Positions 44,878-63,842 are shown, counted from the first letter of the stretch. The stretch is DNA of 64,000 nucleotides from a virus (IMGVR_UViG_3300006930_000001:11121-75120); one strand, 5' to 3'. A program made the numbers and translations. The notes: generated from the sequence alone by a model not told the origin.

Positions 44878-45114
44878 TTATCTTCCAATCGCCCATGTGC
44901 CATCGATCTTTTTACGGAGAATGTCCGCAGTTCCTTTCAAATGCATGTTCATCTGAATTTCTTTTCCATTTACAACTATAATCCCCCTTACATCGGCTTC
45001 TGCAATGAGATCGATGGTCTTTCTGTCGATAAATGTGCCTTCTGGGTTTCCAATAGCCTTATTCAATTTGTCCGCCTGTATACGGATCACTTTTGCATGT
45101 ATTTCGTCCTTCAT
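44878..45114 (-). CDS. Hypothetical protein
   Basis: Likely start MKDEIHAK. Confidence 0.45.
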   Translation of the reverse strand: MKDEIHAKVIRIQADKLNKAIGNPEGTFIDRKTIDLIAEADVRGIIVVNGKEIQMNMHLKGTADILRKKIDGTWAIGR

Positions 45115-45724
45115 TTCGATACTTCGTAATTGTGGTCCTGCTGATGCCAAGAACTTTTGCTGCCTCGGAGATCGTGCTCTCGGGATTCTCCTCAAAATAT
45201 TCCATGACTTGTCTGAACTTCTCGGGATCGGTTCCCAGGGAAACATGGACCACTTCTGTTTTGGTTACTGGTTCCCCATTGTTCAATACCTCTACAATTT
45301 GTGCAGTTGGCACCTGTTCAATCACCTGTTCAGTGGACAAATCTGACCTGATGCACATCATGAACAGTTCAATACTTACACAAAGGGTTACTGGTGCCAC
45401 CGCATGTGCTGCTTGGCTGATGATATCGGGTGGACTGTGGATGATGTTGAATACCATACTGATCAAGGTGAACACAATTAGAACTGTCCATCCAACCATA
45501 GTAGACTCCATTCTAATGGACGATCTCAATATCATCAGACTACCAGAGATAAGCAGGGCATCAATACAAACAGGCCATAGCCATGATAACCAAGGAATAA
45601 TACCTGCATCAAGTGCTGTTGCCTGCAGGTTAAAAAAACTAAGGAGAAATGAACAGACAGCAATGATCAGTGTTGCCACACCGGTAAGGTTAGGGATGAA
45701 CTGTTCAAACTGTTGCAGGTTCAT
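45059..45724 (-). CDS. DUF2637-like membrane protein with C-terminal HTH
   Basis: SFLLSFFNL, LWPVCIDA, SMVFNIIH, AVAPVTL; C-terminal TISEAAKVLGISRTTITKY. Confidence 0.7.
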   Translation of the reverse strand: MNLQQFEQFIPNLTGVATLIIAVCSFLLSFFNLQATALDAGIIPWLSWLWPVCIDALLISGSLMILRSSIRMESTMVGWTVLIVFTLISMVFNIIHSPPDIISQAAHAVAPVTLCVSIELFMMCIRSDLSTEQVIEQVPTAQIVEVLNNGEPVTKTEVVHVSLGTDPEKFRQVMEYFEENPESTISEAAKVLGISRTTITKYRNEGRNTCKSDPYTGGQIE

Positions 45725-46088
45725 TCAGCCTAATCCTCTTTTCCTTCTTGTTGAAGTTGGTCTGTTTCAGGATCCCACATTTGATGGATTCATCAACCAT
45801 CTGCCGCGCCCTCTGTTGACTACAATTGGTGCAGTCTGCTACGATGAGAATACAATTGGTCCTGGTAATGTATCCAAGATGTTCCATGTAATTCTTGATT
45901 CGCTGGTCTTCTTTGAAGATAGTAGCGATATCGTTGTAGCGTTCGGGTGCAATCGAGCGCAGGTATTTCCTCCAGCCTGTTACGAGATGTGGCATTTGAT
46001 TCATCAAATAACTGACCACTTCTCTATCGAGAACGGAATTTTCCAGTGTCTCGATGACTTGTTTTGATGGAAATTCATCCATACACAT
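45705..46088 (-). CDS. Winged-helix DNA-binding protein
   Basis: IVADCTNCSQQRARQMVDESIKCGIL wHTH pattern. Confidence 0.5.
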   Translation of the reverse strand: MCMDEFPSKQVIETLENSVLDREVVSYLMNQMPHLVTGWRKYLRSIAPERYNDIATIFKEDQRIKNYMEHLGYITRTNCILIVADCTNCSQQRARQMVDESIKCGILKQTNFNKKEKRIRLNEPATV

Positions 46089-46117
46089 AATTGTGGATCT
46101 ACAAGGTATAAATAACC

Positions 46118-46136
46118 AGTATTACAAATGCATACT
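46118..46136. promoter_or_regulatory. Operator AGTATTAC-AAA-TGCATACT
   Basis: Between TATA (TATAAATA, 46107-14) and ATG 46140 in a divergent promoter. Confidence 0.65.
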
Positions 46137-46139
46137 ACG

Positions 46140-46292
46140 ATGAGACTACGATGCACAGAATGTAGCGTGGGACCCTGCACATTGGATGTCCCAAATTGCA
46201 TGGATCGAACAATGTTCATGGATTGTCCTGCAGCACATGATACCGGTATGGATTGCGGTGTAGATTGGGAAGAGATAGATGGAATCGAATGA
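46140..46292 (+). CDS. 50-aa Cys-rich protein
   Basis: MRLRCTECSVGPCTL...; below the ORF-track cutoff; follows TATA and operator. Confidence 0.5.
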   Translation: MRLRCTECSVGPCTLDVPNCMDRTMFMDCPAAHDTGMDCGVDWEEIDGIE

Positions 46293-46400
46293 AGAACCCA
46301 GGCGTGAGTATCCTGTAGGACATAAACCTAAAAAGGTTGATTATGTTGAGGATGCCCCAGATGAATGGGGTGAAATATAAGACCTATGTGATCCAACAGA

Positions 46401-46721
46401 ATGGTAACAACCATGACCAAAAAGACTGGATGGAGATCGATCAAAGGTAATGTGGTCAAAGTTTATGCCACGCTTACTGAAGTAAAAGTAAACCTTGATA
46501 GAACAAGATACAAGGTTAAATTGCCTGTTGACAATTCTATAACTATTTTGATACCAAATGAATCTATTTCTGTTGACCAGGGGTATCAATATGTCGAAAT
46601 TGAAGTTTTTAACAGAATTGCCAAAGATGCATTGTTTAAACTTGGAGAATACCTTATCATAAAGCAAGGTGAATCACCTGCTCTTGTGAGATCCGAATTT
46701 ACGGAAGTATACATAGAATGA
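46401..46721 (+). CDS. Hypothetical protein
   Basis: 106 aa beta-rich. Confidence 0.55.
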   Translation: MVTTMTKKTGWRSIKGNVVKVYATLTEVKVNLDRTRYKVKLPVDNSITILIPNESISVDQGYQYVEIEVFNRIAKDALFKLGEYLIIKQGESPALVRSEFTEVYIE

Positions 46722-46842
46722 TATGCCAGTGGTTGAGTAATTCTGGTGAATGCAATCTATTTTCAAAACAGGATAAGGAAGATCCATTGCTTGAAAAACT
46801 TGATTGTGATAAGAATGGTATATGTAAAAAAGGAGATATAGA

Positions 46843-47142
46843 ATGTATTTAGGAAAAATTAACTGTCCAGATTTGGACGATGATGGTAATCCAATCTATT
46901 ATTTCAATGTAAGTGTTACAGCGAAATGTTGTCAGTATTTTGTTGTAAAAAAGGCAGCAACATATGACGATCATGGAGTAGTTCAACCAGGTGTGGTTGG
47001 ATTAGTATATTTCAAATCGCAGGAGTATATACCAAGATCTCTTGAAAATTGTGCATCTATTCTTGAACTTGCTTACAAATCATTGTTTGGCAAGACCGGA
47101 GATTTTTATGGATGGTTTTTGTCCCAGGTGAAAGCATTATGA
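46843..47142 (+). CDS. Hypothetical protein
   Basis: 99-aa ORF. Confidence 0.55.
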   Translation: MYLGKINCPDLDDDGNPIYYFNVSVTAKCCQYFVVKKAATYDDHGVVQPGVVGLVYFKSQEYIPRSLENCASILELAYKSLFGKTGDFYGWFLSQVKAL

Positions 47143-47657
47143 TGCTTGTGGCATTGGATATAAACAGGGCATCCGGAGTAAAAGTTTATTCGATGGTAGA
47201 TCAGGAATACAAAGAGATGGAACTTTCATTTTCTGCAGTATCTGTTCTGTTTCGTGTAGCAATGATGATGCAAGAACAGGGTTTTAGATCTACGTATCTT
47301 CCTGAAGAAATACAAAAATTTAGAGATATTGCTTTCCTGAATAGTCCAATGGGACCAGCATACTTCGAACCAGAAGAACATAATTATAATATTAAATTGA
47401 GTACGTTCTCATTTAATGTGGAGAAGTTATTCAAGTTGATATTGCCAGAATTGCACAGGTATGCAGAGAAATATTACTTGCATCCAAATTTCATCATACT
47501 TGGTGGTGATTATGTTGCCAGACTCCTGGAACGACAAGAAATGATACCAGAAAGGATACGATTCAATTTTACATCGATCAATGCATGCCTGGAACTTGCT
47601 CCTGATTTCCGTGGCATATACGTTACCAGAGTAGAGAATCCTGGTGAATTCAAATGA
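47112..47657 (+). CDS. Hypothetical protein
   Basis: About 170-181 aa ORF. Confidence 0.6.
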   Translation: MVFVPGESIMMLVALDINRASGVKVYSMVDQEYKEMELSFSAVSVLFRVAMMMQEQGFRSTYLPEEIQKFRDIAFLNSPMGPAYFEPEEHNYNIKLSTFSFNVEKLFKLILPELHRYAEKYYLHPNFIILGGDYVARLLERQEMIPERIRFNFTSINACLELAPDFRGIYVTRVENPGEFK

Positions 47658-47817
47658 ATATAATACTTAAAGTGGTATACAGGGATGGAAGGGAAGAAAT
47701 TATTGATGATGTTTACCAATACAAAACAAGTTTTGGATGGTTAAATATTATAACTGGATTTCATGTTCATGGATCAAAATCTATACCATCTGATTTGATT
47801 GCATCTGTGGAGCAGGT

Positions 47818-48441
47818 ATGACTTACTCAATCCTCTACGTTGATTGTCCCTGGCAATACAAAGACAAAGCTAATGCGGGTAAGCGTGGAGCAGAACACAA
47901 ATACCAGTGCATGTCCCTGGCCGAATTGATCGGAATGCGTCCATATATTGATTCTATTGCGAACGACAATTCTGTCATGTTCATGTGGGCTACAGGACCA
48001 ATTATGCCAGATGCACTAAAGGTAATGGAATATTGGGAATTTGATTACCGGACCATTGCGTTTACCTGGATCAAGACTAATCCGAAAGGGACCGGGAGAT
48101 CCCTGGATACTGGCCAACCATTGTATCTTGCCACATTCCTTAATCGTGAAGGAGAAATTGATACATATGGTGATTTCCTTGGTATGGGTAATCATACCAG
48201 GGCCAATGCAGAATTTGTTCTTCTTGGTGTGCGTGGTAAAGGATTACAAAGAGTAAATAATTCTGTGCGCTCTACAGTTATATCCCCTATTAGAGAACAT
48301 TCCAGAAAGCCTGCAGAAGTAAGAACTGCAATAGAAAATCTATATGGTGAGCAGGAAAGGATAGAATTGTTTGCCAGAGAGGTTGTTTCTGGTTGGGATG
48401 CTCATGGATTAGAAACCGACAAATTTAAATCACCAGAGTGA
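47818..48441 (+). CDS. MT-A70 family N6-adenine methyltransferase
   Basis: YVDCPW (DPPW variant), LFMW-like FMWAT, F.WIK, HSRKP, IELFAR. Confidence 0.85.
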   Translation: MTYSILYVDCPWQYKDKANAGKRGAEHKYQCMSLAELIGMRPYIDSIANDNSVMFMWATGPIMPDALKVMEYWEFDYRTIAFTWIKTNPKGTGRSLDTGQPLYLATFLNREGEIDTYGDFLGMGNHTRANAEFVLLGVRGKGLQRVNNSVRSTVISPIREHSRKPAEVRTAIENLYGEQERIELFAREVVSGWDAHGLETDKFKSPE

Positions 48442-48678
48442 TAATATTGTAATGTGGCACAGACGGAGAGTAACTACTGATACCAGCATCAACGTCCGTC
48501 TGTGTTAATAACTGATGAAAAATTGTTGTGTTGTGCCTCTGCTTCGGGTCAAACCGTTGTGGAGGTATTGGCCGGGTAATAACCGGCACTCCGAGTTCAG
48601 GATTGAGCATGACAATCCCCCTAACAACATGCACATAAGTCGGGAAATTGCCTGCAGGGACCAACCCTCCCTGTTATT

Positions 48679-48776
48679 GCCCCATTCGACAACTGGATGT
48701 CCACAGAAATGTGCCAGGGATATTATATCGATCACTGATATTCTTGGAACCACGGTTCGAGTCCGTGGATGGGGTC
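48679..48776 (+). tRNA. tRNA-like element without a normal anticodon arm
   Basis: Acceptor GCCCCAT/ATGGGGT, D-arm GACA-ACTGGA-TGTC, T-arm CACGG-TTCGAGT-CCGTG; between D and T arms a CACA-GAAA-TGTG hairpin and a 10-bp hairpin. Confidence 0.5.
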
Positions 48777-49029
48777 TGTCCATCCGTATAATCCAATTTA
48801 ATGATCTGGTATCCATTCCAGTGAGTTGCTTGGAGTTGGACCGCTGTGAATTAATCGGTAAATAAACAGCATGCGTTGTAGGAGTTCCGTAAACCTTCCG
48901 CCTTTGCTGGTTGTCGTGTTACATCAACCAGAAGTTAAGATGGTTGCTATAAACCACTCGTATATGATTCCGACGCACAGGGATCTATGGCAGTAAACTC
49001 ACAATAGGCCATTGTGTTCTGCCGTAACA

Positions 49030-49069
49030 ATGAGGAACGACTGCGATGGTTCAATTCCATCCCCTCGTT
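49030..49069 (+). ncRNA. tRNA-like minihelix (acceptor plus T-arm only)
   Basis: ATGAGGA...GATGG-TTCAATT-CCATC-CCCTCGT with only an 8-nt linker. Confidence 0.45.
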
Positions 49070-49116
49070 ATCCCTGACTGCAGCAGGGCGCTGGCCAGCG
49101 TTTTGGTCCAGCAAGT

Positions 49117-49225
49117 AGCAGATAGGTGACGAATTGGTCAAGTCAAATCGTGACTGTTATCAAATGCATCCCTGGTAACAAGATGGTTCCCAAAGGGTTC
49201 GTGGGTTCGATTCCCACATCTGCTA
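49117..49225 (+). tRNA. Leu-type (class II) tRNA-like gene with a hairpin insert in the anticodon loop
   Basis: Acceptor AGCAGAT/ATCTGCT, D-arm TGAC..GTCA, variable arm TCCCAAAGGGTTC as in archaeal tRNA-Leu, T-arm GTGGG-TTCGATT-CCCAC; anticodon not assignable. Confidence 0.55.
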
Positions 49226-49307
49226 TCTCCCTGGTCCAGTGACAGGGAAAACTTAAAGGAGAATCCTGAAAATGTTACGGCGGATCGGGAGTCACTGGTC
49301 CGAACAT

Positions 49308-49334
49308 TCTCTGCCGTGGGTAGAGATCTTTTTT
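49308..49334 (+). terminator. Hairpin plus oligo-T ending the ncRNA locus
   Basis: TCTCTGCC-GTG-GGTAGAGA followed by TCTTTTTT. Confidence 0.55.
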
Positions 49335-49358
49335 ATTGCTTCTTATCAAAGTTAATAT

Positions 49359-49817
49359 ATGCCAATTTGCAATAAGGGAATAAGAGGTTGTGTAATCTGC
49401 CAGAACAAGAAGATATCGGATATTGTGGATCCTATCGTCTTTGGTGCAGAAATGAAGATGGCAGACCTCAAGGAAAAACTTGAGAATCAGTATGGTTTAA
49501 TGTGTGAACTTACTGAACTAAAGGCTCATGCACGCCATGTATTTTTCATTGATTCTGATTCTATTGACAAAGTTTCTGAAAAAAAGAAATATGTTATAGA
49601 ATCAAAAACGATAGACATCATAAATGATGAATTGGCCGAATTGACCACTGCTATGGAAGGCTACAGGAGAAATGGCCAGGACAATACCCTTGAGTTCTCT
49701 AAGATGCAGAAGACCATGATCGAACTTCTGAACATGCGGGCAAAGATCGAGGGAGAAATCTCTGATGGTGTCATTGTAGTGCCTCCCTGGTTGGAGTCAA
49801 TGGATGACCAGGCTTAA
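49359..49817 (+). CDS. Putative terminase small subunit
   Basis: 152 aa with CxxC/HTH-like N-terminus and coiled coil; overlaps the TerL start. Confidence 0.55.
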   Translation: MPICNKGIRGCVICQNKKISDIVDPIVFGAEMKMADLKEKLENQYGLMCELTELKAHARHVFFIDSDSIDKVSEKKKYVIESKTIDIINDELAELTTAMEGYRRNGQDNTLEFSKMQKTMIELLNMRAKIEGEISDGVIVVPPWLESMDDQA

Positions 49818-51249
49818 ATTTTATGATAAGCCACTTACCCTTTTCAATTTAGCAAAAACTGTTCTTGGTTATAACAAAATAACTGAAAAGCATCGTAGGG
49901 TATGGTGTGATCCTCTTGAAGAGAATCTAAAACGATACCGGAGGCACCTGTATCTTAAACCCAGAGGAACTTACAAATCAACATTGTATACCGTTTCTTT
50001 TGCAATTAACCTGCTTATACAAGATTGGTATGATAATGGTGGAAAATTTACAAAAAGGATCCTGGTTGCCTCCGCTACAAATGAACTTGCAGAACAATTT
50101 GTTGGTGAAATAAAGCAACATCTTACCGAGAATGATAAACTGCATCGTGTATTTGGTTATAATCCAGTTAAAAGAGATAATCAAAGAGAAGTTTGGTTAA
50201 ATCCCCGTGTAGTGAAGAAAGAACCAAATATCAAAGCAAAAGGTGCATTGTCTTCACTTACATCGGAACACTATGATATCATTATCTGTGATGATATTTG
50301 TAATAACGATGATCGTGAATCTGAAACTATACGTGAGAAAAAGAAACGCTGGCTACAAGACCTTATCTCTATCCTTGAACCAGACGGTCTCCTGGTGGTA
50401 ATAGGGACCAGATGGCATTCAGATGATGTCTACCAAGGGATTATAGACAATAATCCAAAATTGCCACAGAGAGAACAATATCATATCGAAATAGAAGCAG
50501 TGGTAGATCCAGAAGGCAATCTTTTATTCCCATCCATTATAGACCATGAAAAAATTGAATCACTAAAAATTGAGAAGGGTCTTGTAGAATTCTATTCGCA
50601 GTATATGAATAATCCATTGCCAGCAGAAACACAGTTGTTTTCTACCGAAAGGATGTATTTCTACAGCGAATCACCAGAATCACTGGAGAAAGAAATAAAC
50701 TTTGCATATATGGATCCTGCTCTGGGTTCAATTGGCAAAGGAAAGAATGATTATATCGTTGTTCTATTCGGAGCAAAGAAAAATGGTTTCACTTTTGTAA
50801 GAGATTGCATCATTACCAATACCACAACACCAGATGCTGTGATAAAGGAAATGAAGCGTATGTATCGTATGTATGGATGTTCATACGTAGGAGTAGAAGC
50901 AAATGGCTACCAGACACTTTTTGCCAAAGCAGTAAGGGAAGAAGGAATGGTGGTCAAAGAAGTGAGGAGCAATAAGCCAAAGAACATCAGAATAGAATCC
51001 ATTGAACCCTGGGTAGCATCAGGAAAGATAAGGTTCAGATCTGACTGGAAAATCCATTATCCGAAGTTAATTGAGGAAATGGTTGTGTATCCAATTGGTA
51101 AACATGATGATGTCCCTGATGCTGTGCATGGTTTATCTGTGATGGGTTCCAGAAAATTATCAGGGATCAAGAAAGAATCGCTTCGGAATCTTGTAACAAC
51201 AAAGACACGGTTGCTTTTAGGGAGGAGAAATGGCAGAAGTCATAATTAA
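49804..51249 (+). CDS. terL: Terminase large subunit
   Basis: Walker A PRGTYKST, Walker B IICDD, IGTRWH, FYSQYMNNP, nuclease YMDPA and HDDVPDA. Confidence 0.92.
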   Translation: MTRLKFYDKPLTLFNLAKTVLGYNKITEKHRRVWCDPLEENLKRYRRHLYLKPRGTYKSTLYTVSFAINLLIQDWYDNGGKFTKRILVASATNELAEQFVGEIKQHLTENDKLHRVFGYNPVKRDNQREVWLNPRVVKKEPNIKAKGALSSLTSEHYDIIICDDICNNDDRESETIREKKKRWLQDLISILEPDGLLVVIGTRWHSDDVYQGIIDNNPKLPQREQYHIEIEAVVDPEGNLLFPSIIDHEKIESLKIEKGLVEFYSQYMNNPLPAETQLFSTERMYFYSESPESLEKEINFAYMDPALGSIGKGKNDYIVVLFGAKKNGFTFVRDCIITNTTTPDAVIKEMKRMYRMYGCSYVGVEANGYQTLFAKAVREEGMVVKEVRSNKPKNIRIESIEPWVASGKIRFRSDWKIHYPKLIEEMVVYPIGKHDDVPDAVHGLSVMGSRKLSGIKKESLRNLVTTKTRLLLGRRNGRSHN

Positions 51250-52597
51250 AGGTAAGAAACTCATAGCAGGTGTTTCTGGTATTGAACGTATTGATGGTAG
51301 CAAGACAGAGATTGGTCCTTATCAGTTTGTAAACACTACAAACCGGTTTGTCAAATACCAGCAGATGTGTGTCACTTCGCCACACGTTTTGATATCACTC
51401 ATTAAGTTGAGTTTATCAATAATCAAAGGATTTAGGATTGAATGCAATAATGAATCAAAGAAGAAAGAATACGAAGAATGGGCTACCAGGATATGTTTAA
51501 GATCAAAAATTCAAATGCTTGTTCTTCTGCTATGCAGGGATGGAACATACATTGCGAATATAACCAATCCCATTAAGGAAACATTTGATTTTAATCCAGT
51601 TCTTATGGAATTTGCCTCTATTTATCCAATTGGATATAAACCAGATGCAGAAAATGCAACACTTGTTTTACAAGCGCCATTTGATAGGATTATTATCAAT
51701 GAAGGTATTCAGAATGCAGAAGATGAATTAAAACGTGAAGATATCATATATGGTGCATTGTTCCCGTATATTGGAAAAATAAAGGATAATAGAGGTAGGG
51801 AAACATATGGACTGTATGGATTATCTATGCTTGAATCTATTGAAAATGTTCTTTGTGATTACCTGGATATTACCAGAGGATATGCGCAATTCATCAAGAG
51901 ATATGGTTTTGGAAGGCTTCATATTAATTACAAGGCTTTGGAGGAACTTATCAGGGAAGGAGAAGTCGATGAGGCAATTGATGCACTCAATAAATTATCT
52001 GAAGAACATGAACTGATAGAACAAAATGAAGACATAATTGGTGCCGGATTTGAAATAAAAGAACTTGATACTGGTGGATCCAATCCAAACATCACACAAT
52101 ACAAGGAATCCCTGGAGAAAGATATCCAGATAGGATTGCTTCAAGCACCACTTACAATGGGCAGGGCAGAGGGAACGACATACGCATCAGGCTACATATC
52201 CGAAGAAGAGCGTATGATAACTCTGGAAGGTATACAGAACATCGTAACAGAAATTGTGAACAATGAGATCATCAGGAAGCGTGAAGGTGCGCAGCCAGGT
52301 CAATCAATTGATGTCAGTATTGTATTTGACGAACTATCAAAGCCAAAGGTCGACTCGAAGGACCTTGGGGATGCCCGTGACAAAGGTGCAATATCAATCG
52401 AAGATTGGCGGTCAAGGAGTGGTTTCCCAGAGAAAAGGAATCCAACACATACGTATGCTGTTGATATCAACAGTAAGCCACCAAGCATGAACCCTGCTGA
52501 TAATGTAGCAAAACCAATCACTGACAAAACCAGTATTACGGATTCACAACGCCAGGATGGACAAAAGGACTTAAATAATAACGGTGTCAAAGAATAA
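51230..52597 (+). CDS. Portal protein
   Basis: 455 aa directly after TerL; YGLSMLE and RYGFGRLHI portal-like segments. Confidence 0.75.
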   Translation: MAEVIIKGKKLIAGVSGIERIDGSKTEIGPYQFVNTTNRFVKYQQMCVTSPHVLISLIKLSLSIIKGFRIECNNESKKKEYEEWATRICLRSKIQMLVLLLCRDGTYIANITNPIKETFDFNPVLMEFASIYPIGYKPDAENATLVLQAPFDRIIINEGIQNAEDELKREDIIYGALFPYIGKIKDNRGRETYGLYGLSMLESIENVLCDYLDITRGYAQFIKRYGFGRLHINYKALEELIREGEVDEAIDALNKLSEEHELIEQNEDIIGAGFEIKELDTGGSNPNITQYKESLEKDIQIGLLQAPLTMGRAEGTTYASGYISEEERMITLEGIQNIVTEIVNNEIIRKREGAQPGQSIDVSIVFDELSKPKVDSKDLGDARDKGAISIEDWRSRSGFPEKRNPTHTYAVDINSKPPSMNPADNVAKPITDKTSITDSQRQDGQKDLNNNGVKE

Positions 52598-52599
52598 TC

Positions 52600-52824
52600 A
52601 TGGCAAACTTACCAATTGCACCAGTGAAGAAACTTGCGAAGAATGTTGACCGGGAAGCACGTATCGGTGACGATGCTGTTGCACTTCTGATTCAGATGGC
52701 CGAGAAAACCATCACCGATGTAGCAAAAGAGGCATATTCACTTGCATCCTACACAGGAAGAAAGACCATCCAGTCACAGGATGTCCGGACTGCCTGCCAG
52801 AAACTCGGCATCAAGATCGAGTAA
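52600..52824 (+). CDS. Archaeal histone (HMfA/HMfB type)
   Basis: LPIAP...RIGDDA...A.EA..LA...GRKTI..QD aligns by eye with HMfB over its full length. Confidence 0.93.
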   Translation: MANLPIAPVKKLAKNVDREARIGDDAVALLIQMAEKTITDVAKEAYSLASYTGRKTIQSQDVRTACQKLGIKIE

Positions 52825-52833
52825 ACCTTTTTT

Positions 52834-52852
52834 TGTATCATTGACGCATACA
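52834..52852. promoter_or_regulatory. Degenerate operator TGTATCAT-TGA-CGCATACA
   Basis: GTAT-N9-ATAC core 8 nt upstream of the helicase ATG. Confidence 0.4.
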
Positions 52853-52860
52853 TATGCTGT

Positions 52861-54327
52861 ATGTCGTCTAAACTTGACGAAGCAAACCAGTTGTGCGAAG
52901 AAACACTCGGAAAACCATATTTCGAGATATTTGACGACGCAGATTCTTCTGATGCAGAAATAGAAGCAAATATGGTTCTTCTGCGAAAGAAGACAGAATT
53001 TGTTAGTAGAACAAAGTTACCACCAGAACCTGCTGACTCGTATCTTGATTTGTGGCGCAAATATTGGAATTCTATTGTTATACGCCAACCACTTACCTGT
53101 GAAATGTATGCTATGTGCGCAGGTTCACAATTACTCAAACACGTTACCGTTGTGAAGCAGGGAGGTGTAGAAGAAGATATCAGAGTGAATCCATGTATCA
53201 TCATGCCATCAGGAACTGGAAAATCTGAAGGCAATGATATTCTTGCTACATTTGCCAGGCAGATAGGACTTGTATTCACATCGGTTGATAGATATAATGA
53301 TGCAGTTCTTGTAGGATCCGTGATAAAGGCAGCAATCGATTACAATCTAAAAAATAGAAAAAATCCTGGCGATCCTGGATATATGGATCCAGACGAAAAA
53401 GGTATCCTGCGCAAATCACATTTTGTTGTATTTGATGAAGGAGAAAATATTCTAAAGACCAGTAAAGAGACAGAAGGTGCCCAGAGATATCTTCAAAAGG
53501 CAATGAACCGCCATAATTCAGAAGGTAACTATGTATCAAATAACCTGGTCGGATATCAGATAGGAGGCTACCCAGACTGCAGTATAGTGATCACCAGTTA
53601 TTATCTGGAAGAATTTCAAGAAACTCTTCTTGATCGTGGATTGCTCCAGCGTATGGTAGTTTTGATTCAGGAAGAAAACTATGATACAAGAACTGCAATT
53701 ATTGATAGCACTATTGATGGTATACCTACTTATGAGGATATTAAGACCACGAAAGCCAACATCCGTGGATTAAAGAATGCACGCCTGGACCTTATTCAGA
53801 AACTTGTCGATGAGGCAAGGCAGGTAAGGGATTACCACATTGATACAGAATCAATGTCACTCACCAGGGAAGCAAAAGAAATCATGAAATCTGGTGTTAA
53901 TGAATTACGTGAATTAATGCCATTCATGACAGGTCAAAAACAGATCTGGGAATCTATGGTTACTCGTATGGCTATAAATCTCCTTAAAATATCTGCAATT
54001 CATGCAATGGTAAATTACCGGAAATATGTTGATGTTCCTGATGTTCTGTATGCTACAAATATCATGATTCAGACAATGACATCTGTAGGGTTCTTTTTAC
54101 GTGAACACGTTGCAACAGTCAGTGATAGAAAAACTATACAGATACATACATTACTCAAGCGCAAGTATGTTGGTGAATCGTTCCCAAGCATGAAATGGGT
54201 CGCGCTCATAATGGAGGAATTTCATTTCCAGGAGAATAAAGCCAAATATATCATCAAAAACCTTGTGGAGAATGGGAAGTTCAAGGAGATCAAGAAAGAC
54301 GGCAAAAATTGTCTTCTCATTCAGTAA
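52861..54327 (+). CDS. MCM-like AAA+ replicative helicase
   Basis: Walker A PSGTGKS, Walker B VVFDEG, Arg finger RGLLQR, C-terminal winged helix. Confidence 0.7.
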   Translation: MSSKLDEANQLCEETLGKPYFEIFDDADSSDAEIEANMVLLRKKTEFVSRTKLPPEPADSYLDLWRKYWNSIVIRQPLTCEMYAMCAGSQLLKHVTVVKQGGVEEDIRVNPCIIMPSGTGKSEGNDILATFARQIGLVFTSVDRYNDAVLVGSVIKAAIDYNLKNRKNPGDPGYMDPDEKGILRKSHFVVFDEGENILKTSKETEGAQRYLQKAMNRHNSEGNYVSNNLVGYQIGGYPDCSIVITSYYLEEFQETLLDRGLLQRMVVLIQEENYDTRTAIIDSTIDGIPTYEDIKTTKANIRGLKNARLDLIQKLVDEARQVRDYHIDTESMSLTREAKEIMKSGVNELRELMPFMTGQKQIWESMVTRMAINLLKISAIHAMVNYRKYVDVPDVLYATNIMIQTMTSVGFFLREHVATVSDRKTIQIHTLLKRKYVGESFPSMKWVALIMEEFHFQENKAKYIIKNLVENGKFKEIKKDGKNCLLIQ

Positions 54328-54335
54328 TCTTTTTT

Positions 54336-54354
54336 AGTATGCAAGTGTAATACT
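54336..54354. promoter_or_regulatory. Operator AGTATGCA-AGT-GTAATACT
   Basis: Arms identical to the reverse complement of the 46118 site; 7 nt upstream of ATG 54362. Confidence 0.65.
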
Positions 54355-54361
54355 GTATGTC

Positions 54362-55429
54362 ATGTCGTATGAAGAACAGATCAGACAGTTGTCTGATAAG
54401 ATCATGGAGGATTTTGACTCCATGTGGGCAGTATTCAATGAGAAAGTCGAAGAATATCTTGCCATCGATGTTCCACAAAAGAAGGCAGAGATGGTTGCCT
54501 TCAAACAGTTAAAAGGTTCATACCAGGCAGCACTTCGGTCAAAGGCGATTCCAATGGAAGGCTTTGTAGTCGGGTTGACCAAAATTGTTGATCGTTCAAA
54601 CCGGGAATACAGGGAGGCTATGAAAGTCCTGGAGGACCTGAAACAAGAGAACCTTTCTGCATGGATCAATATTGGCATGAATCGTGGTATCTGTGATGCA
54701 GAAGGCAATCCTCTGTATTGTCCAGAGAATACCAGCGAGAAACAGAAGTGGCTCTGGAAACAGAAGATACCAGAACACCGATGGGAACGATCTGCGTTCG
54801 GGTATTTCAGACCAATCATCAAGGAAGATGGTGTCCAGGTAAACAATGCTCTGAAACCTGGTGTGATATATATCAGAGAAACAGAGAAGCATGTGCTGGT
54901 CCCAGGTTCAGCATATCGGTTCAGAGCCGGATGTTCAGCACCAGAAGCAACCGTTCTATCAATATCCACCGCTACACAGACAGAATTCGAAGAGACCGGC
55001 AAGGTGAGTTATGATGTTGTCATGAAGATGGTCAAGGAATTTGGCAATCTTGCTCCGTTCATTGATGTATACAATCCAAATTCCGACAATAAGATCGAGA
55101 TGCCGGAAGGTGTCAAGTTCTATGCAACAGAGGCTACTGTTGTATCGCTCACTGCAAAGCCAGAGAATTCAAATGACTCTGTAGAATTCCAGTCACTGAT
55201 GGACGATGATGTCGATCAGAACATTCGTATGACCGTTGTCAGGGAAATGGATACCTGTTTTGAGAATGCCATCGGTCTGGTAATCTATCGTCCGTATATG
55301 ACCAAGCCAGACGAGGAGAAGGGCAGAGAGGCTGAACCATCCGGTGAGATCGTAGGATTCATCCCAGATCCAACAATGTGCATTCCCCCGAAAGAAGTCA
55401 AACAGGTGAGTGCAAGTGACTTCGACTGA
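54362..55429 (+). CDS. Putative ssDNA-binding protein (RPA-like)
   Basis: Helical N-terminus, beta-rich body, acidic tail (ASDFD); position in the replication module. Confidence 0.4.
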   Translation: MSYEEQIRQLSDKIMEDFDSMWAVFNEKVEEYLAIDVPQKKAEMVAFKQLKGSYQAALRSKAIPMEGFVVGLTKIVDRSNREYREAMKVLEDLKQENLSAWINIGMNRGICDAEGNPLYCPENTSEKQKWLWKQKIPEHRWERSAFGYFRPIIKEDGVQVNNALKPGVIYIRETEKHVLVPGSAYRFRAGCSAPEATVLSISTATQTEFEETGKVSYDVVMKMVKEFGNLAPFIDVYNPNSDNKIEMPEGVKFYATEATVVSLTAKPENSNDSVEFQSLMDDDVDQNIRMTVVREMDTCFENAIGLVIYRPYMTKPDEEKGREAEPSGEIVGFIPDPTMCIPPKEVKQVSASDFD

Positions 55430-56306
55430 AGTGACCTTTGGTGTTGATGTGGGTGAACCCACCACACCTTCTGCAAAGAAAGAAGAAAAGATGCATGAAC
55501 TTGAGGAGAAACAATCACGGGTAAAAGAACTGATAGCAAACAGGCCAGAATTTTCATTTGATGATGAAGATGATGATGGATTAAACGGAATCACAGTTTT
55601 CTCTGTGTATGGATTGAAAAATGATGGAAAGACGGTCATATGTTACGGTATACCGGAAAATGGAGAAAGGGTCCTGGTGATCTCATTTGATCATATGTCC
55701 GGTGCTGCAACAAAACTGCCGTTTATTACAAATGCAGGTCTCGAATTCAAGATAAAGGATGGTCTAAAATTCATGGATCGTTCAACACTTGAAACTCTGC
55801 AGGAGACATCTGATATATCGTATGGATATTTACTTTTCCTGCTTGCAGAAGCAAAGAAACAGTTCAATCCTGATTGGATTATATTTGATGGCACCGAAGT
55901 TCTGAATACGATTCTTGAACAGGTAATGAGATTACGCAATAAACTCATGCCATACCAGGGAATTTCAAACCTGAATGTCTGGAAAGAACGAAAACAGTAT
56001 ATCGATGACATACATGCAAAAGCGGTAAAATGTGCAAACAAAGGTGTCATCTACACGATGTATACTGACCAGCATGAGGTAGTGGACAAAGAAGGACAGG
56101 TCCTGCGTAAAAAAGACATACCAAAATGGATTGGATCGGTAATGCGTGAAACCCATATCGTTATCAAAGGTGATGCAGTATTTGAAAAGGGTTCTCGCCA
56201 CTACTATGCCATAGTAGAAGGTTCAAAGAAGCCAGATATGTTTCCCGATGGCAAATATGATGTCACCAACAAGAGACTGCGGGATGTGGTATGTCGGAAC
56301 TTGTAA
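55410..56306 (+). CDS. P-loop ATPase (AAA_24/Sak4/RecA-like)
   Basis: VYGLKNDGKT Walker A; WIIFDG Walker B. Confidence 0.7.
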   Translation: MQVTSTEVTFGVDVGEPTTPSAKKEEKMHELEEKQSRVKELIANRPEFSFDDEDDDGLNGITVFSVYGLKNDGKTVICYGIPENGERVLVISFDHMSGAATKLPFITNAGLEFKIKDGLKFMDRSTLETLQETSDISYGYLLFLLAEAKKQFNPDWIIFDGTEVLNTILEQVMRLRNKLMPYQGISNLNVWKERKQYIDDIHAKAVKCANKGVIYTMYTDQHEVVDKEGQVLRKKDIPKWIGSVMRETHIVIKGDAVFEKGSRHYYAIVEGSKKPDMFPDGKYDVTNKRLRDVVCRNL

Positions 56307-56485
56307 GGATCACAGTTGGTCTGGATCCTGATACCAATGCAAAACTAAACGAACTGGATGTTATACTTGGTTCAAATAAAAGCAATGTTGTCAGGATTTG
56401 CATAAACAGGCTTTACAAACGTATCGATGAATTAAGAGAAATAATGGAGAAGGACAATGCACCAATCGACCTTAAAGACCTTTAA
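56291..56485 (+). CDS. Ribbon-helix-helix transcription factor
   Basis: RITVGLD...KLNEL...GSNKSNVVRICI. Confidence 0.75.
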   Translation: MSELVRITVGLDPDTNAKLNELDVILGSNKSNVVRICINRLYKRIDELREIMEKDNAPIDLKDL

Positions 56486-57131
56486 TGATCTTACTGAAGG
56501 CCTCACCACATCAGGAGATTATGAGGCTCATAGTGACAGCGAAGGCAATCTTGTTGCAAATATCAAAGCATTTGATATGACCGGTGTAATTTACTTATGT
56601 CTTCCGGGAGTTCCGGATATTCATATGTATGCCAACCAGAAGACGATAGACAAGTATATCGATCTTTTTACCAATCCGATTGATATTCGGACCAGCGAGG
56701 ATTCGATTCTTATCTTTAATGATGAACTGGAAGTTCTCATGCCAATGGTGGCAAAGGAGAATGCAGAAAAATTTACTGGTAAACTTCAGGCACCAATAGA
56801 TTATTCTGATGCCCAGGTATTTTCGATTCCACTTGATGCAATTGCTACCATATTCAAAGCATCCAAGAAACAGGATGATATGAAGATATTCTTTGATATG
56901 GGAGATTACCTGACCATAACCTGTGGAAAGGTGAAAAGAAAACTCAAGGAGATCACCGGGAAGCCAGGAAAGTGGACATTCAAATTTGATGTCCTGGAAC
57001 GTATGATCGGGAAAGCCACTTCTCCTGTGGTATTTACTCTAAAAAATTCAGTTACACAATTCCCTGGAAAAATTGAATACCAGGCCGGTCTTGTGAAAGT
57101 GGAAGCATACATCATGGGGATGGAAGAATGA
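56457..57131 (+). CDS. pcn: PCNA sliding clamp
   Basis: 224 aa with IKAFDMTGV..LCL, two-domain beta repeat and YIMG end; next to RFC. Confidence 0.7.
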   Translation: MHQSTLKTFNDLTEGLTTSGDYEAHSDSEGNLVANIKAFDMTGVIYLCLPGVPDIHMYANQKTIDKYIDLFTNPIDIRTSEDSILIFNDELEVLMPMVAKENAEKFTGKLQAPIDYSDAQVFSIPLDAIATIFKASKKQDDMKIFFDMGDYLTITCGKVKRKLKEITGKPGKWTFKFDVLERMIGKATSPVVFTLKNSVTQFPGKIEYQAGLVKVEAYIMGMEE

Positions 57132-57265
57132 GTAACGAAACTGTAACCATATCAAAAGAAGAATATGATCGTCTTCTTAAAGCGGAAGAGACCCTTACTG
57201 CACTTGAATCTCATGGTGTTGATAATTGGGATGGATACAGTGATGCTATGGAGGATGTATCATGA
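57128..57265 (+). CDS. 45-aa conserved phage-type protein
   Basis: VTISKEEYDRL...LE..GVDNWDGY pattern; ATGA overlaps. Confidence 0.6.
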   Translation: MSNETVTISKEEYDRLLKAEETLTALESHGVDNWDGYSDAMEDVS

Positions 57266-58119
57266 TAAAGGACCAGTTATATACCGAAAAATACCGTCCA
57301 GGTAAATTTAGTGAGATTGTGGGTCTCACAGTCGATCTCACGAAACTTGATAGTTTACCAAACCTTCTCCTGGCAGGAAGATGTGGTATTGGAAAGACTA
57401 CGCTTGCAAAAGTGATTGCAAAGGAATACAATTGTGATGTGCTCTACCTGAATGCATCTGATGAACGTGGAATTGATATGATACGTGGAAAGGTGAAGGA
57501 ATTTGCATCCACGATGTCTATCAACAAACGTGTCAAATTGGTTCACTTTGATGAGGCCGATGGTCTGACATTCGATGCACAGAATACCCTGCGTAATATC
57601 ATGGAAGAGTATTCCAACAATACCAGGTTTGTGTTCACCTGTAACAATGTCGCAAAGATCATTGAACCAATCCGGTCCAGGTGCATGGAGATCAATCTTG
57701 CCACGCCACCAATGCCGGACATCGAGGTTTACCTGGCACGCATCATAGGGGCTGAAAATATCCCGATCCCTGCACAAGACGTATCAAACATCATCTCGAT
57801 CAATTACCCGGATATACGTAGCATGGTGAACGCACTACAACACTACGCTATGTTTGGATCGGTCCCATCGAGCAATCATACTCTTGCCAATGATATCCTC
57901 GGTTTTGTAAGGTCAGGTAAGTTTCTGGATGCAAGAAAACAATGGATCGCTGCAGCACCAGATTACAAGAACCTCCTGGTGGACATGACTGATCTGATGA
58001 CAGATACGGAGATCGAGAAATGGGTAATCACCATTGCCAAATACTCGTATGAGATGTCGATTGGAGCATTTCCGGAGATATCGTTCGCAGCATGCATTAA
58101 AACAATGTGTGACAAATGA
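57262..58119 (+). CDS. rfcS: Replication factor C small subunit (clamp loader)
   Basis: EKYRP, GRCGIGKTT, LNASDERGID, DEAD, PIRSRC. Confidence 0.93.
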   Translation: MIKDQLYTEKYRPGKFSEIVGLTVDLTKLDSLPNLLLAGRCGIGKTTLAKVIAKEYNCDVLYLNASDERGIDMIRGKVKEFASTMSINKRVKLVHFDEADGLTFDAQNTLRNIMEEYSNNTRFVFTCNNVAKIIEPIRSRCMEINLATPPMPDIEVYLARIIGAENIPIPAQDVSNIISINYPDIRSMVNALQHYAMFGSVPSSNHTLANDILGFVRSGKFLDARKQWIAAAPDYKNLLVDMTDLMTDTEIEKWVITIAKYSYEMSIGAFPEISFAACIKTMCDK

Positions 58120-58269
58120 ACAGAAAAATAATATGCTCTTTTATGAGCAGACCGGTAATAACAAAGATTTACCCTGGTGGCAGGGTAGAATCAGAATTTT
58201 TCAGAGTGGAATGCTTCTCTGAATGTTCAAGTAATGTATTAGGAAAATGCACCAGAGAAAGGAAGTGTA

Positions 58270-58641
58270 ATGATGACCCAGAAGAAAATGGTTTCAGATA
58301 AGCCAAAAGAATCCGGTATACTGTTCGAAGTCGATGTAGAAGAACAGGTTCAAGAAGAACAGCCAGCAGAAAATGCAGAAGTTATAGTTGATGAATCTCC
58401 TGTAGAAGAAACACCATCAACCGATGCATTTGACAGTTATTTCAGGGATCGCAAGATTCAGTTGGATATGATAAACAAGCCAGAGAATGGATGTTTTGGA
58501 GTATTCCAATTGTATTGCAGAAGAACCGAAAAATCGTGCGATAACCGTGGATTCCAGGAGAAGCACCCGGCCACAATGCTTGCCAGGTGTCTGGTATGCA
58601 AGGACATTGGTGTCAGACTGGTGCCAAATGATACTTGCTGA
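58270..58641 (+). CDS. Hypothetical protein (acidic N-terminus, Cys cluster)
   Basis: 123-aa ORF. Confidence 0.5.
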   Translation: MMTQKKMVSDKPKESGILFEVDVEEQVQEEQPAENAEVIVDESPVEETPSTDAFDSYFRDRKIQLDMINKPENGCFGVFQLYCRRTEKSCDNRGFQEKHPATMLARCLVCKDIGVRLVPNDTC

Positions 58642-59176
58642 TTGGCAAATCCGGGATGCTGTAAGGGATAGACATATCCTAATCAGTCCTTTTTCTCATC
58701 AGAATATCAATCCTGCCTCGTATGATGTTACGCTTGGTAATGAATTCCTGATCATAGATCATGTCGATGCAATTGATCCACATAAATCCATTCTATGGGG
58801 GGATCCATATATCGCCAATGAATATCTGATAATGCCACAGGAACATGTTCTCGCTACAACGGTTGAGATAATAGGTCTTGCTAATGGAATTGTAGCACAA
58901 TTGAATGGTAAATCGTCCTGGGGAAGATTGGGGATAACCATTCATCAAACTGCGGGATATATAGACCCTGGATTCAATGGACAGATTACATTGGAGATAT
59001 TCAATGTAAACAAGCATACTCCAGTAATTCTTCGTGCGGGAGACCGTATAGGACAACTTGTATTCCAGACTATGGAAAGAAGTAAGTATCCATACAACGC
59101 AAAGAAAGGATCCAAGTATATGTTCCAGAAAGGTGTAGTTCCGAGTAAATACTACAAGAACTTTGAAGGTGAGTAA
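58628..59176 (+). CDS. dcd: dCTP deaminase
   Basis: Start MILADWQI; NPASYDVTL, GKSSWGRLG, AGYIDPGFNGQITLE. Confidence 0.92.
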   Translation: MILADWQIRDAVRDRHILISPFSHQNINPASYDVTLGNEFLIIDHVDAIDPHKSILWGDPYIANEYLIMPQEHVLATTVEIIGLANGIVAQLNGKSSWGRLGITIHQTAGYIDPGFNGQITLEIFNVNKHTPVILRAGDRIGQLVFQTMERSKYPYNAKKGSKYMFQKGVVPSKYYKNFEGE

Positions 59177-59585
59177 TATTCCATTCAAAACAATGGGTAA
59201 GATGATCAAAGGTCTTGCAACACCAGAGGATGTCGCAGGAAAGGAAGTAGTTATCTTTCATGGTCTTGGATTTGTGGATCCAACCCTGGCATCAAAGATT
59301 AACCAGTATATTTTCTTTCTGAAACCTTCCCTGGTCCAGAGACTCTTGATTGTGGCATTTTATAAGAAAAAGATGCCATCATGGATAAAGAAACCAAAAA
59401 AGGCTGAAGAAGATGACATTGATCGATATTGTAGAGAACATGCTCTCGAACGCACTCCAGTGCTTGAAAAACTGGTTGAACAGAATTACCGAGAGTTTCT
59501 TACAGAGATTCGAGCAGATGAGCCTGCATTTACAAAGGCTGGCCTCTCTCTTACAAAACCGGCAAAAAACAAGTGGTTTGGATGA
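59163..59585 (+). CDS. Possible clamp-loader A subunit (T4 gp62-like)
   Basis: 140 aa with KINQY...KKKMPSWIKKPKK pattern; weak similarity judged by eye. Confidence 0.35.
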   Translation: MKVSNIPFKTMGKMIKGLATPEDVAGKEVVIFHGLGFVDPTLASKINQYIFFLKPSLVQRLLIVAFYKKKMPSWIKKPKKAEEDDIDRYCREHALERTPVLEKLVEQNYREFLTEIRADEPAFTKAGLSLTKPAKNKWFG

Positions 59586-59775
59586 AAAACATTGCAAAGT
59601 CTGCAGTTATCAAAGAATTCACACGAAGAGGCATGACTATGGAACGATCTGGAGAAAGCATCGTATTGTCAGGAGATCTTGGCACTGTTGAGATCGAAGA
59701 AAGTAATGGCATGCTTATTATTTCGTTCTCTTGATACCACTATTTTTATTAACTTATACCGATAAACTATACTGT

Positions 59776-60108
59776 ATGCAAGAAGCATTACAGGACCTTG
59801 GGTTCACGAAAAATGAATCATTGGTAATAGCATTTTTTGCAAATACCAAAGAAGCAGATCAACGTGATATCGAAATTGCATGTGGTATCAGGCAATCTGA
59901 AGTAAGTGTTGTTATGAAATCTCTAAAGGCAAGAGGCATAATAACATATCATGAGGTTAGCGATGGAAGAGCAGCAAGACCAAAGAAGATCTATTCAATG
60001 ATTCGGCACATGGTTACGCACAATCTTGAAAAAAAGATAGAAGCGGAATATGATGCAAGAATGAATGCACTTGATAACGTCAGGAGAATCCTGAATGATA
60101 ATATTTGA
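59776..60108 (+). CDS. TrmB-like winged-helix transcription regulator
   Basis: LQDLGFTKNES...DIEIACGIRQSEVSVVMKSL..RG; likely start MQEAL. Confidence 0.75.
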   Translation: MQEALQDLGFTKNESLVIAFFANTKEADQRDIEIACGIRQSEVSVVMKSLKARGIITYHEVSDGRAARPKKIYSMIRHMVTHNLEKKIEAEYDARMNALDNVRRILNDNI

Positions 60109-62338: not shown

Positions 62339-62841
62339 AACCTACATTTGATGATATGCAGAAACTTTCAGAGCGTGCATTTGTTCTTGAACTTGAAGAG
62401 ATACCAGGCTTTGTTAGAGAAGTCATAGAAAAATTTGAACTGGAGGGTATACAGAAATGTAATCTTGCAGTTATCACATCGATTGCATTGCTCAAGAATT
62501 TTGTCGAAGGCAAACTTTTTGATATGTCAGAATCAGAATTTGAACAGACAAAATGGTTACTTCTGAAATCGTTGTTCCCAGATCTTGGTGATGGACCAAT
62601 AAGTATCATGAAATGGAATACTCTTCTTGTTCCATCAGGAGAATCGTATTTCAAGTCAATATCACCAGAAGCATTCGAAACTATTCAACAGTCTGCACGC
62701 TTGCTCTTGGATATGCATAATTCTGGAAGCAGGACCTATGAACCAGAACAGATCAAGCATTGGGAAAATATCATCAATGGCGAAGTCCCATTCGGGTATA
62801 CTATAATTAAACCGGATGAAGATCAAACCAAAGAGGTATGA
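62332..62841 (+). CDS. Hypothetical protein
   Basis: 169 aa helical. Confidence 0.6.
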   Translation: MVKPTFDDMQKLSERAFVLELEEIPGFVREVIEKFELEGIQKCNLAVITSIALLKNFVEGKLFDMSESEFEQTKWLLLKSLFPDLGDGPISIMKWNTLLVPSGESYFKSISPEAFETIQQSARLLLDMHNSGSRTYEPEQIKHWENIINGEVPFGYTIIKPDEDQTKEV

Positions 62842-63842
62842 TAGGTGAGTGTTTTATTGCGACTGCACATGGACCGATAGCGGTTGCAGATCTTCAACCC
62901 GGAGAACTTCTTTTTTCGTGGAATAATGGTTACAATCTTCGTGAACTTGAATCAATTTCAAAATTTAACGAAGCATATTTGTTTAAATCTGTATACGACA
63001 ATGGATCCATAATTCATTGCACAGATGACCAGGATATTCTTTTGCGTGGTGGAACTTACAGATCCATCAAAAATATTGATCTGATGTCATCTGTGATGGC
63101 ATTCACCAGGACAATACGTGGTAGGGAATGGTCGATAACCATGTATGATGAATCTGGTTCTCGATTACCAGAACATCACTTTATTGCCAGGGAAATGGGT
63201 ATTGTGGGTGAACATATCCATCATATCAATGGAGATCACTCTGATAACAGTCCAGAGAACCTGGTAGGTCTCACTGAAGAAGAACATCGTGCTATACACG
63301 ATCAATGGCGCAGAGATGGTATACAGAAGATAAACGACGATATAAAGGACAAGGCTGTTTCTGTTAGAGCAGAATCTTGGCGGCAATGGTATTATTCACT
63401 TTCACAAGAACAAAAGGATGAATACTGGAATAAACTACGGCTTGGTAGGCAGCGTTCAGCCAGGGAACGTATCTCAAATGGAACGCATAACTTTGTGGCA
63501 AATAATCCTATGAATGATCCCGAGGCAGTAAAGCGCATGATGCAATCGAAAATATCTACCACGGGATACAAGATGCGTGACATGGGTCTTCCCATCGATC
63601 AGCAATCCTGGGATACTTCAGTAAAAAATTCTGGGTTATACAAGAGCCATCAATTCAAATCAGGTCTGGTAATCGATACATTTGGATCTTGGCAAGAATT
63701 TATCGAATATCTTAATTCACACAATTCAAAACTGGTAAATGTAGAATTCGACTACATAGGATTGGGATTTGAACTTACTGTGGAAAATTTCGTTGTATGT
63801 GACCAAAAGATGACAAAAGGAATTGTTGTTAAGGGCATTTGA
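62838..63842 (+). CDS. Free-standing Hint (intein-like) domain with internal HNH endonuclease
   Basis: Intein block A-like GECFIATAHGPIAVADLQPGE, block B-like IHCTDDQ, HNH HHINGDHSDNSPENL...H, blocks F/G-like ELTVENFVV...GIVVKG. Confidence 0.8.
   Translation: MIGECFIATAHGPIAVADLQPGELLFSWNNGYNLRELESISKFNEAYLFKSVYDNGSIIHCTDDQDILLRGGTYRSIKNIDLMSSVMAFTRTIRGREWSITMYDESGSRLPEHHFIAREMGIVGEHIHHINGDHSDNSPENLVGLTEEEHRAIHDQWRRDGIQKINDDIKDKAVSVRAESWRQWYYSLSQEQKDEYWNKLRLGRQRSARERISNGTHNFVANNPMNDPEAVKRMMQSKISTTGYKMRDMGLPIDQQSWDTSVKNSGLYKSHQFKSGLVIDTFGSWQEFIEYLNSHNSKLVNVEFDYIGLGFELTVENFVVCDQKMTKGIVVKGI

Follow-up and report, generated by a model that had tools for sequence, protein, structure and literature searches.

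What does a tailed virus keep in a 917-nt gap between an MT-A70 methylase gene and the terminase gene TerS, where no protein seems to be encoded? The question is raised by positions 48442-49358 of the window, the 64,000-nt stretch of DNA analyzed here, which corresponds to bases 11121-75120 of a 75,120-bp IMG/VR virus record that has terminal repeats and is judged complete. Its gene set is that of a tailed virus, including TerL, portal, tail tube, a tape-measure-like protein, and a family B DNA polymerase. The methylase gene (Pfam E-value 1.6e-20) lies on the 5' side of the locus and TerS on its 3' side, followed downstream by TerL and the portal gene, and every gene from 45093 to 63839 is encoded on the plus strand. 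Directly 3' of the portal gene, and at the same place in the related viruses L022 and L024, is found a gene for an archaeal-type histone fold (Pfam CBFD_NFYB_HMF, E-value 1.9e-15). The host is likely archaeal and probably a methanogen, since the source of the related viruses is digester-type metagenomes; profile searches of genome contigs with TerL and the histone found no relative.

The initial annotation described this gap as a highly structured non-coding RNA locus built around defective tRNA-like modules, and the observation as a whole is confirmed. Its statement that no credible ORF is present holds, as the mechanical ORFs of 116 aa (plus strand) and 103 aa (minus strand) have neither a Pfam match nor a conserved counterpart. 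A protein-coding reading of the gap was rejected, given zero Pfam matches and a translation that is not conserved in the relatives. The G+C content of the locus exceeds that of the window (46.6% vs 40.2%), and relative to dinucleotide shuffles the plus strand folds far more stably than expected (-314.8 kcal/mol vs -269.3 +/- 10.4; z of -4.4), the minus strand reaching a z of -2.2. Canonical T-arms, defined by a 5-bp stem, the G53-C61 pair, and a consensus loop, number three as claimed (at 48751, 49045, and 49201), all of them on the plus strand. The T-loop word GGTTCRANTCC occurs four times in the 64 kb, against 0.19 expected, and three of these occurrences fall inside the locus; the fourth is found on the minus strand, within a hairpin cluster at a point where transcription converges (Table 1).

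The other structural claims made for the locus can also be traced. The two nested long-range pairings, which close domain C and unit 2, are 7-bp complementary stretches present in local minimum-energy folds. The recurrent stems made of the word CAGGGA and its complement account for eight occurrences in 917 nt, approximately eight times the window average, an average that is itself twice the chance level. Across the window the word or its complement is found 72 times vs approximately 30 in shuffles, and is therefore over-represented genome-wide rather than just in the RNA locus. At the 3' end, the proposed kissing loop corresponds to a complementarity between loop 49236-43 and 49291-98; L015/L029 and L026 also keep a loop-to-downstream complementarity, the letters differing among the window, L015/L029, and L026.

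Table 1. Features of the locus, and elements mentioned in the text from elsewhere in the window and from related viruses (prefixed by their names)
Feature	Coordinates	Strand	Description
MT-A70 methylase gene	47818-48441	+	
AT-rich start motif	48442-48460	+	just 3' of the methylase stop codon; a near-identical 19-nt word opens the gap in L022 and L026
Hairpin I	48455-48507	+	13-bp stem; local fold -22.7 kcal/mol; orthologue not found
Branched domain II	48520-48640	+	uncertain fold with alternative pairings; without orthologue in relatives
Hairpin	48654-48675	+	7-nt loop; stem is the CAGGGA word and its complement; directly 5' of unit 1
Unit 1	48679-48775	+	five-armed tRNA look-alike; constrained fold; ARAGORN match at relaxed score only
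Unit 1, anticodon position	48702-48713	+	4-bp stub and GAAA tetraloop
Unit 1, variable hairpin	48714-48747	+	long, 10-12 bp
Spacer	48777-48870	+	shared with L022
Block within spacer	48833-48870	+	38 nt, 92% identity, AT-rich, hairpin-closed
Domain C	48872-48977	+	closed by 7-bp stem 48872-78/48971-77; without orthologue
Domain C, hairpin	48907-48931	+	8 bp
Domain C, T-arm-like hairpin	~48940-48956	+	degenerate
Unit 2	48978-49076	+	three-way junction; fold -35.0 kcal/mol; 7-bp closing stem 48978-84/49070-76
Unit 2, long arm	48986-49026	+	
Unit 2, minihelix	49029-35/49063-69	+	7-bp helix around a 9-nt linker and canonical T-arm (49045-49061)
Two small hairpins	49072-49100	+	49072-49088 and palindrome 49089-49100; kept 3' of tRNA-Asp in L022
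Unit 3	49117-49225	+	class-II-like tRNA look-alike; constrained fold; 15.3 bits with the tRNA model (cut-off 29 bits)
Unit 3, anticodon position	49147-49186	+	long irregular hairpin, 10-nt loop
Unit 3, T-arm	49201-49217	+	canonical
3' module	49228-49340	+	hairpin 49228-49248, then small hairpins; terminator-like hairpin 49308-49326 and T-run 49328-49333
TerL gene	49804-51249	+	481 aa
Histone-fold gene	52600-52824	+	
Fourth T-loop word	34688-34698	-	
tRNA-Asp (GUC)	L022:5038-5109		
Family A unit	L022:4676-4749; L025:3073-3146		
Block of ~125 nt	L022:5257-5400; L024:230-365; L025:2934-3075; L029:2445-2585		
Small ORF	L022:5719-5967; L029 ~2991-3245		
Interrupted TerL gene	L022:6452-8935; L024:1621-4155; L029:4318-5285		
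Thg1-family gene	L026:1554-2288	-	
Two gene calls	L029:1428-2183	-	

The best defined parts of the locus are three units that resemble tRNA bodies. A 7-bp acceptor stacked on a T-arm with conserved loop, together with a D-arm holding GG, is found in units 1 and 3; in unit 2 the same body is reduced to a minihelix without D-arm. Unit 1 has a 6-bp T-arm, and its orthologue in L025 shares the architecture but differs in the T stem by two compensatory changes. The minihelix of unit 2 is the module that terminates the arrays of L015, L025, and L024, and its helix also shows two compensatory changes. Unit 3 combines a perfect acceptor with a 3-bp variable hairpin and discriminator A, and has orthologues in L022, L029, and L024; the four acceptor sequences are all different and all fully paired. 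Its middle arm takes different forms: in the window and L022 the long irregular hairpins share a loop word over covarying stems, and in L024 the arm is just a 5-bp stem with a GAAA tetraloop. The units also agree with what defines a t-element, being non-canonical cloverleaves that keep the acceptor and T-arm and carry a GGTTCRANYCC-type word.

Around these units the evidence is uneven. Domains I, II, and C are without comparative support because no orthologue was found in the relatives, and the 5' third of the window locus is without counterpart elsewhere. The start motif is a candidate TATA-type promoter of the locus. The terminator-like hairpin and T-run end approximately 25 nt upstream of the TerS start, and the T-run could equally be the TATA box of TerS. 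The first hairpin of the 3' module and the layout of the module are kept in L015, L029, and L026. Together with the A-rich tail that follows, this hairpin could imitate a CRISPR repeat of the host; the Rfam CRISPR repeat families gave no match at the locus.

None of the standard tools assigns the locus to a described family, in agreement with the initial annotation: in the window ARAGORN reports zero tRNAs and Rfam zero matches at gathering score, and genome-wide the tRNA model scores highest at unit 3, still below the RF00005 cut-off. Covariance models of GOLLD, ROOL, and other large RNAs have no match at gathering score or at E-values up to 10, and none in the relatives. C/D-box snoRNAs were considered and rejected: SNORD73 (window) and sR7 (L022) score far short of the cut-off, and the boxes are not arranged as in such an RNA. 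The claim that a normal anticodon loop is missing is likewise sustained, since units 1 and 3 have none, and the single candidate in unit 2 is weak (4/5) and incompatible with helices that are stronger. Extended to 27 units of the window and its relatives, a scan for an anticodon arm (5-bp stem with a 7-nt loop of the form YU-NNN-R, that is, U33 and purine 37) detected its positive control, the tRNA-Asp of L022, and this was the sole full match (1/27).

A missing anticodon could also mean that it is assembled later, the units being true tRNA genes with archaeal introns, or split or permuted ones, that decode after splicing. ARAGORN in intron mode does model unit 3, and unit 1 at relaxed score, but only by accepting mismatches in the anticodon stems and introns at odd places. 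Intron-bearing viral tRNAs have been reported in an archaeal virus (bioRxiv 10.64898/2026.09.13.751334), which provides a precedent, and one bulge-helix-bulge-like arrangement with an 8-bp inner helix is found in L015/L025. However, units of 53-74 nt with continuous stems of 4-9 bp and 4-nt loops leave no room for an anticodon or an intron. Resolution into ordinary intron-containing tRNAs, which the initial annotation had named as an outcome fatal to its reading, did not come about: bulge-helix-bulge motifs, taken as two 3-nt bulges 4 bp apart, stay at shuffle level in the window (14 vs 15.7) and similarly in the relatives. Decoding after splicing is therefore scarcely credible. The same two results, modules without an anticodon loop and no enrichment of bulge-helix-bulge motifs, tell against the suggestion that the RNAs are decoys for anticodon nucleases or the splicing endonuclease.

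Relatives of the virus were gathered via searches with TerL, TerS, and MT-A70. They comprise L015 (the same as L002/L014), L022 (L016/L023), L025, L024, L029, and the more distant L026 (L190/L191), and are 74-77% identical to the window in TerL and 56-62% in MT-A70. A non-coding block of 0.7-1.7 kb lies directly 3' of MT-A70 in the five contigs that include this gene, and contig L024 begins inside the block. Strict T-arms number two in the block of L015, five in L022, six in L025, three each in L024 and L029, and none in L026; the minus strand has none. Searches of phage GenBank records found no DNA similar to the locus. Short-DNA-word searches of IMG/VR returned the contig of L002 alone with a first pattern and mostly chance matches with three later ones, among which BLAST kept just two copies of L026. 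The lineage is small in these collections.

Several further elements accompany the blocks of the relatives. A stretch of approximately 125 nt located 3' of a unit-3-type module in L022, L024, L025, and L029, and missing from the window, is a conserved structured RNA with 28 predicted pairs, eight of them changed on both sides; compared with Rfam, it belongs to no family and gives a lone weak sR7 C/D-box match far below cut-off. A small ORF of 82-84 aa with a hydrophobic, signal-like N-terminus sits between the RNA block and TerS in L022 and L029, and the window is without it. The TerL of the window is uninterrupted, and that of the relatives reaches 827-844 aa with a LAGLIDADG-type insertion that is probably an intein. 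Loci of this kind escape both Rfam and the standard tRNA finders, and end up with a blank annotation or with spurious ORF calls. The latter is probably the case in L029, where two genes called on the minus strand overlie the tRNA-like array.

Comparison of the blocks bears on whether the locus could be a single large RNA like GOLLD or ROOL, as the initial annotation had suggested, here taken to have a tertiary architecture that is fixed. The size of approximately 0.9 kb, the continuous helices, and the nested long-range pairings would suit such an RNA, which nevertheless has no Rfam match. Moreover, the number of modules ranges from about one to eight among the relatives and their order varies as well. 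One case is that of L015 and L025, whose flanks are 97% identical and yet enclose 98 and 764 nt, respectively, the 764-nt block holding four units; to this can be added the 5' third peculiar to the window. Since whole modules come and go between near-identical relatives, the locus is better described as a modular array, and a single large RNA has only a very slim chance of being the right description.

The same comparison weighs on a DNA-level function, such as a pac site used by the neighboring terminase, an origin of replication, or the remnants of a tRNA-gene attachment site. In favor of it, integrating elements often carry tRNA fragments, and the locus lies directly upstream of TerS. Against this, folding and T-arms are strand-specific, and G-U pairs are present in the covarying helices, which fits a structure read on plus-strand RNA. 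In addition, whole cloverleaves are found rather than 3' fragments, a tyrosine integrase was looked for in the complete genome and is absent, and the gene that follows the block in L026 is not TerS. From this last fact it also follows that the block is linked to the methylase end of the early gene set. A DNA element is accordingly most improbable.

The origin of the modules is suggested by L022. ARAGORN finds in the relatives one normal tRNA, the tRNA-Asp (GUC) of this virus, and one oddity with a four-letter "anticodon", and the Rfam tRNA model rises above its cut-off at only four places in their blocks. The tRNA-Asp, which scores 55 bits, occupies the position of unit 2 and is followed by the same two small hairpins, suggesting that the modules descend from real viral tRNA genes. 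A genuine tRNA at this place in a sister virus, together with units that score as tRNA in Rfam, is also what would be seen in a decaying tRNA gene cluster made of functionless pseudogenes. The damage, however, is not random: the acceptor, T, and mostly the D helices are kept, and solely the anticodon loop is closed or removed. The block is also retained between lineages that share only 56-77% protein identity. Mere decay is decidedly improbable on these grounds, and the families of units described below point the same way.

For 23 units of the window and relatives, each T-arm was closed with its best 7-bp acceptor and the sequence was then folded under this constraint, which gave cloverleaf or reduced cloverleaf shapes throughout. 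The middle arm, where present, mostly has a loop of 3-6 nt, often a tetraloop (GAAA, GCAA, or GACG). Apart from the tRNA-Asp, most units either have no anticodon arm at all or have a closed hairpin in its place, whose loop frequently measures 4-5 nt. Family B (L015, L025, L022, and L029; 69-72 nt) is a cloverleaf whose middle arm has a stem of 4-7 bp and a loop of 4-5 nt, with a different hairpin in each lineage; RNAalifold on the four viruses yields 23 pairs, of which four are changed on both sides and none is broken. In L022 and L029, both the T-loop and the D-loop of this family have departed from the tRNA consensus. Family A (L022 and L025; 74 nt) shows three compensatory changes in a middle stem of 9 bp that closes an invariant 4-nt loop, and a 56-nt family in L022 and L029 is without D-arm. 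Covariation rests on two to four sequences per family. Since the helices are kept via compensatory changes, the units are selected RNAs rather than decayed genes, and the arrays would be working non-decoding RNAs.

The reading favored here is that the locus is a modular plus-strand array of non-decoding, tRNA-derived modules whose transcript would be a precursor for cleavage by the RNase P and tRNase Z of the host, and we give it somewhat less than an even chance. In tRNA processing, RNase P, tRNase Z, and the CCA-adding enzyme act on the stack of acceptor and T-arm, usually with the D-arm. Each module would present just this part, as an acceptor helix on a canonical T-arm and usually with a D-arm, with the anticodon arm closed by a short loop, swapped for another hairpin, or deleted. 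One or a few precursors would be transcribed from the AT-rich start 3' of the methylase gene to the hairpin and T-run 5' of TerS. Because the modules keep the part that these enzymes recognize, host enzymes would be expected to cut at every one of them, and excision by the tRNA-trimming machinery of the host is their most likely fate. The cuts would sever read-through from the early and modification genes ahead of the late structural genes, and would release stable tRNA-shaped RNAs together with the small hairpin RNAs in between. Given the family B loops that are off consensus in L022 and L029, the processing enzymes may not recognize the elbow of all units. To judge from their conserved neighborhood, the MT-A70 enzyme could methylate the RNAs of the array.

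Of the interpretation put forward by the initial annotation, therefore, the structured tRNA-like modules and the precursor cut by RNase P/Z at tRNA mimics are retained, the latter as the reading favored by anatomy and comparisons, and the GOLLD/ROOL-type RNA and the decoys against anticodon nucleases or the splicing endonuclease are not supported.

The tRNA-shaped RNAs may also be the purpose of the locus rather than a by-product of cleavage. They would then act in trans as decoys or sponges for host factors that bind the acceptor, T-arm, or elbow and leave the anticodon aside, or some would be charged and used outside translation. Candidate targets are synthetases, the CCA-adding enzyme, and defense enzymes that either cut acceptor stems or alter the 3' end. 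Pure cleavage markers would be redundant, and one would expect several of the distinct families to have decayed. Several distinct families are instead each kept by compensatory change and retained across viruses, beyond what redundant cleavage signals call for, which suggests that the released RNAs matter in their own right. Units 1 and 3 also retain class-II-like variable hairpins.

The acceptors have a bearing on this possibility as well. The family A unit has an alanine-type acceptor and scores 38 bits as a tRNA despite its 9-bp middle stem. In L022 it carries G3-U70 and A73, the textbook identity set of AlaRS, but its L025 orthologue has G3-C70 and G73. Identity sets are not conserved, as acceptor sequences drift freely. 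A Thg1-family gene lies on the minus strand of L026, approximately 1.7 kb from the MT-A70 gene and the RNA block. This family of guanylyltransferases repairs tRNA 5' ends, and its presence near the locus hints at a conflict over tRNA acceptor ends in this lineage. Thg1 was looked for in the genome of the window and is absent, and the top Pfam families of its 72 ORFs include no tRNA-related enzyme. Action in trans is on balance unlikely, though with a real chance of being right. Its fullest form, in which an archaeal tailed-virus lineage maintains a selected arsenal of non-decoding tRNA mimics of different tRNA origins, all acting in trans, is doubtful, with a modest chance at best.

A precursor cut at tRNA mimics has its closest parallel in the t-element of Haloferax volcanii, a tRNA-like structure upstream of the 5S rRNA that is cut by RNase P and tRNase Z (Hoelzle et al. 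2008, 2012, as cited in PMC4326828). Both cases involve archaeal tRNA-like folds that are not tRNAs; in Haloferax their recognition by RNase P and tRNase Z serves to divide a longer transcript. The haloarchaeal elements are single and cellular, with cleavage shown, whereas the array described here is viral, consists of three to eight diverse modules conserved by family, and would be cleaved by analogy.

Plant mitochondria use t-elements to mark mRNA ends via RNase P/Z; these were found with a GGTTCRANYCC-type word, and stable RNAs have been seen (PMC1920247). They resemble the viral units in being intergenic non-canonical cloverleaves with the same type of T-arm word. Unlike the viral arrays, they are organellar and dispersed as single elements, and anticodon arms closed by tetraloops are undescribed among them.

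Among viruses, murine gammaherpesvirus 68 encodes tRNA-like RNAs from which a tRNase Z cut releases pre-miRNA hairpins (PMC3534370). Here too, non-decoding tRNA look-alikes are followed by hairpins, and in the herpesvirus they are separated by the tRNase Z of the host. Its eukaryotic setting, internal Pol III promoters, and microRNA products are its own and inapplicable in archaea.

The ends of YrlA RNA form a Ro-binding stem at the anticodon-arm side. This tRNA-like bacterial Y RNA, also found in phages, mimics the acceptor, D, and T arms without decoding (PMC4201824). The mimicry is shared by the viral units; unlike YrlA, they have their ends at the acceptor stem, the Rfam model of YrlA finds no match, and no Ro-type gene is among the top Pfam families of the window's ORFs. 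GOLLD and ROOL are also large structured non-coding viral regions tied to tRNA genes, but differ from the present locus, which is modular, variable in content, and without a match to their models.

Full-text literature searches turned up no account of tRNA-like arrays without anticodons in viruses of archaea. What was known before are tRNA-like processing signals as single elements, in haloarchaea and plant mitochondria, and the viral mimics of a single herpesvirus. The archaeal virus group studied here holds whole arrays of tRNA bodies with closed anticodon arms, at a fixed place 3' of the methylase gene and mostly before the late genes. If their products act in trans, they would constitute a new class of viral small RNAs and a strategy so far undescribed for archaea. 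If they are processed as proposed, archaeal viruses would be borrowing the tRNA enzymes of their hosts to shape their own transcripts.
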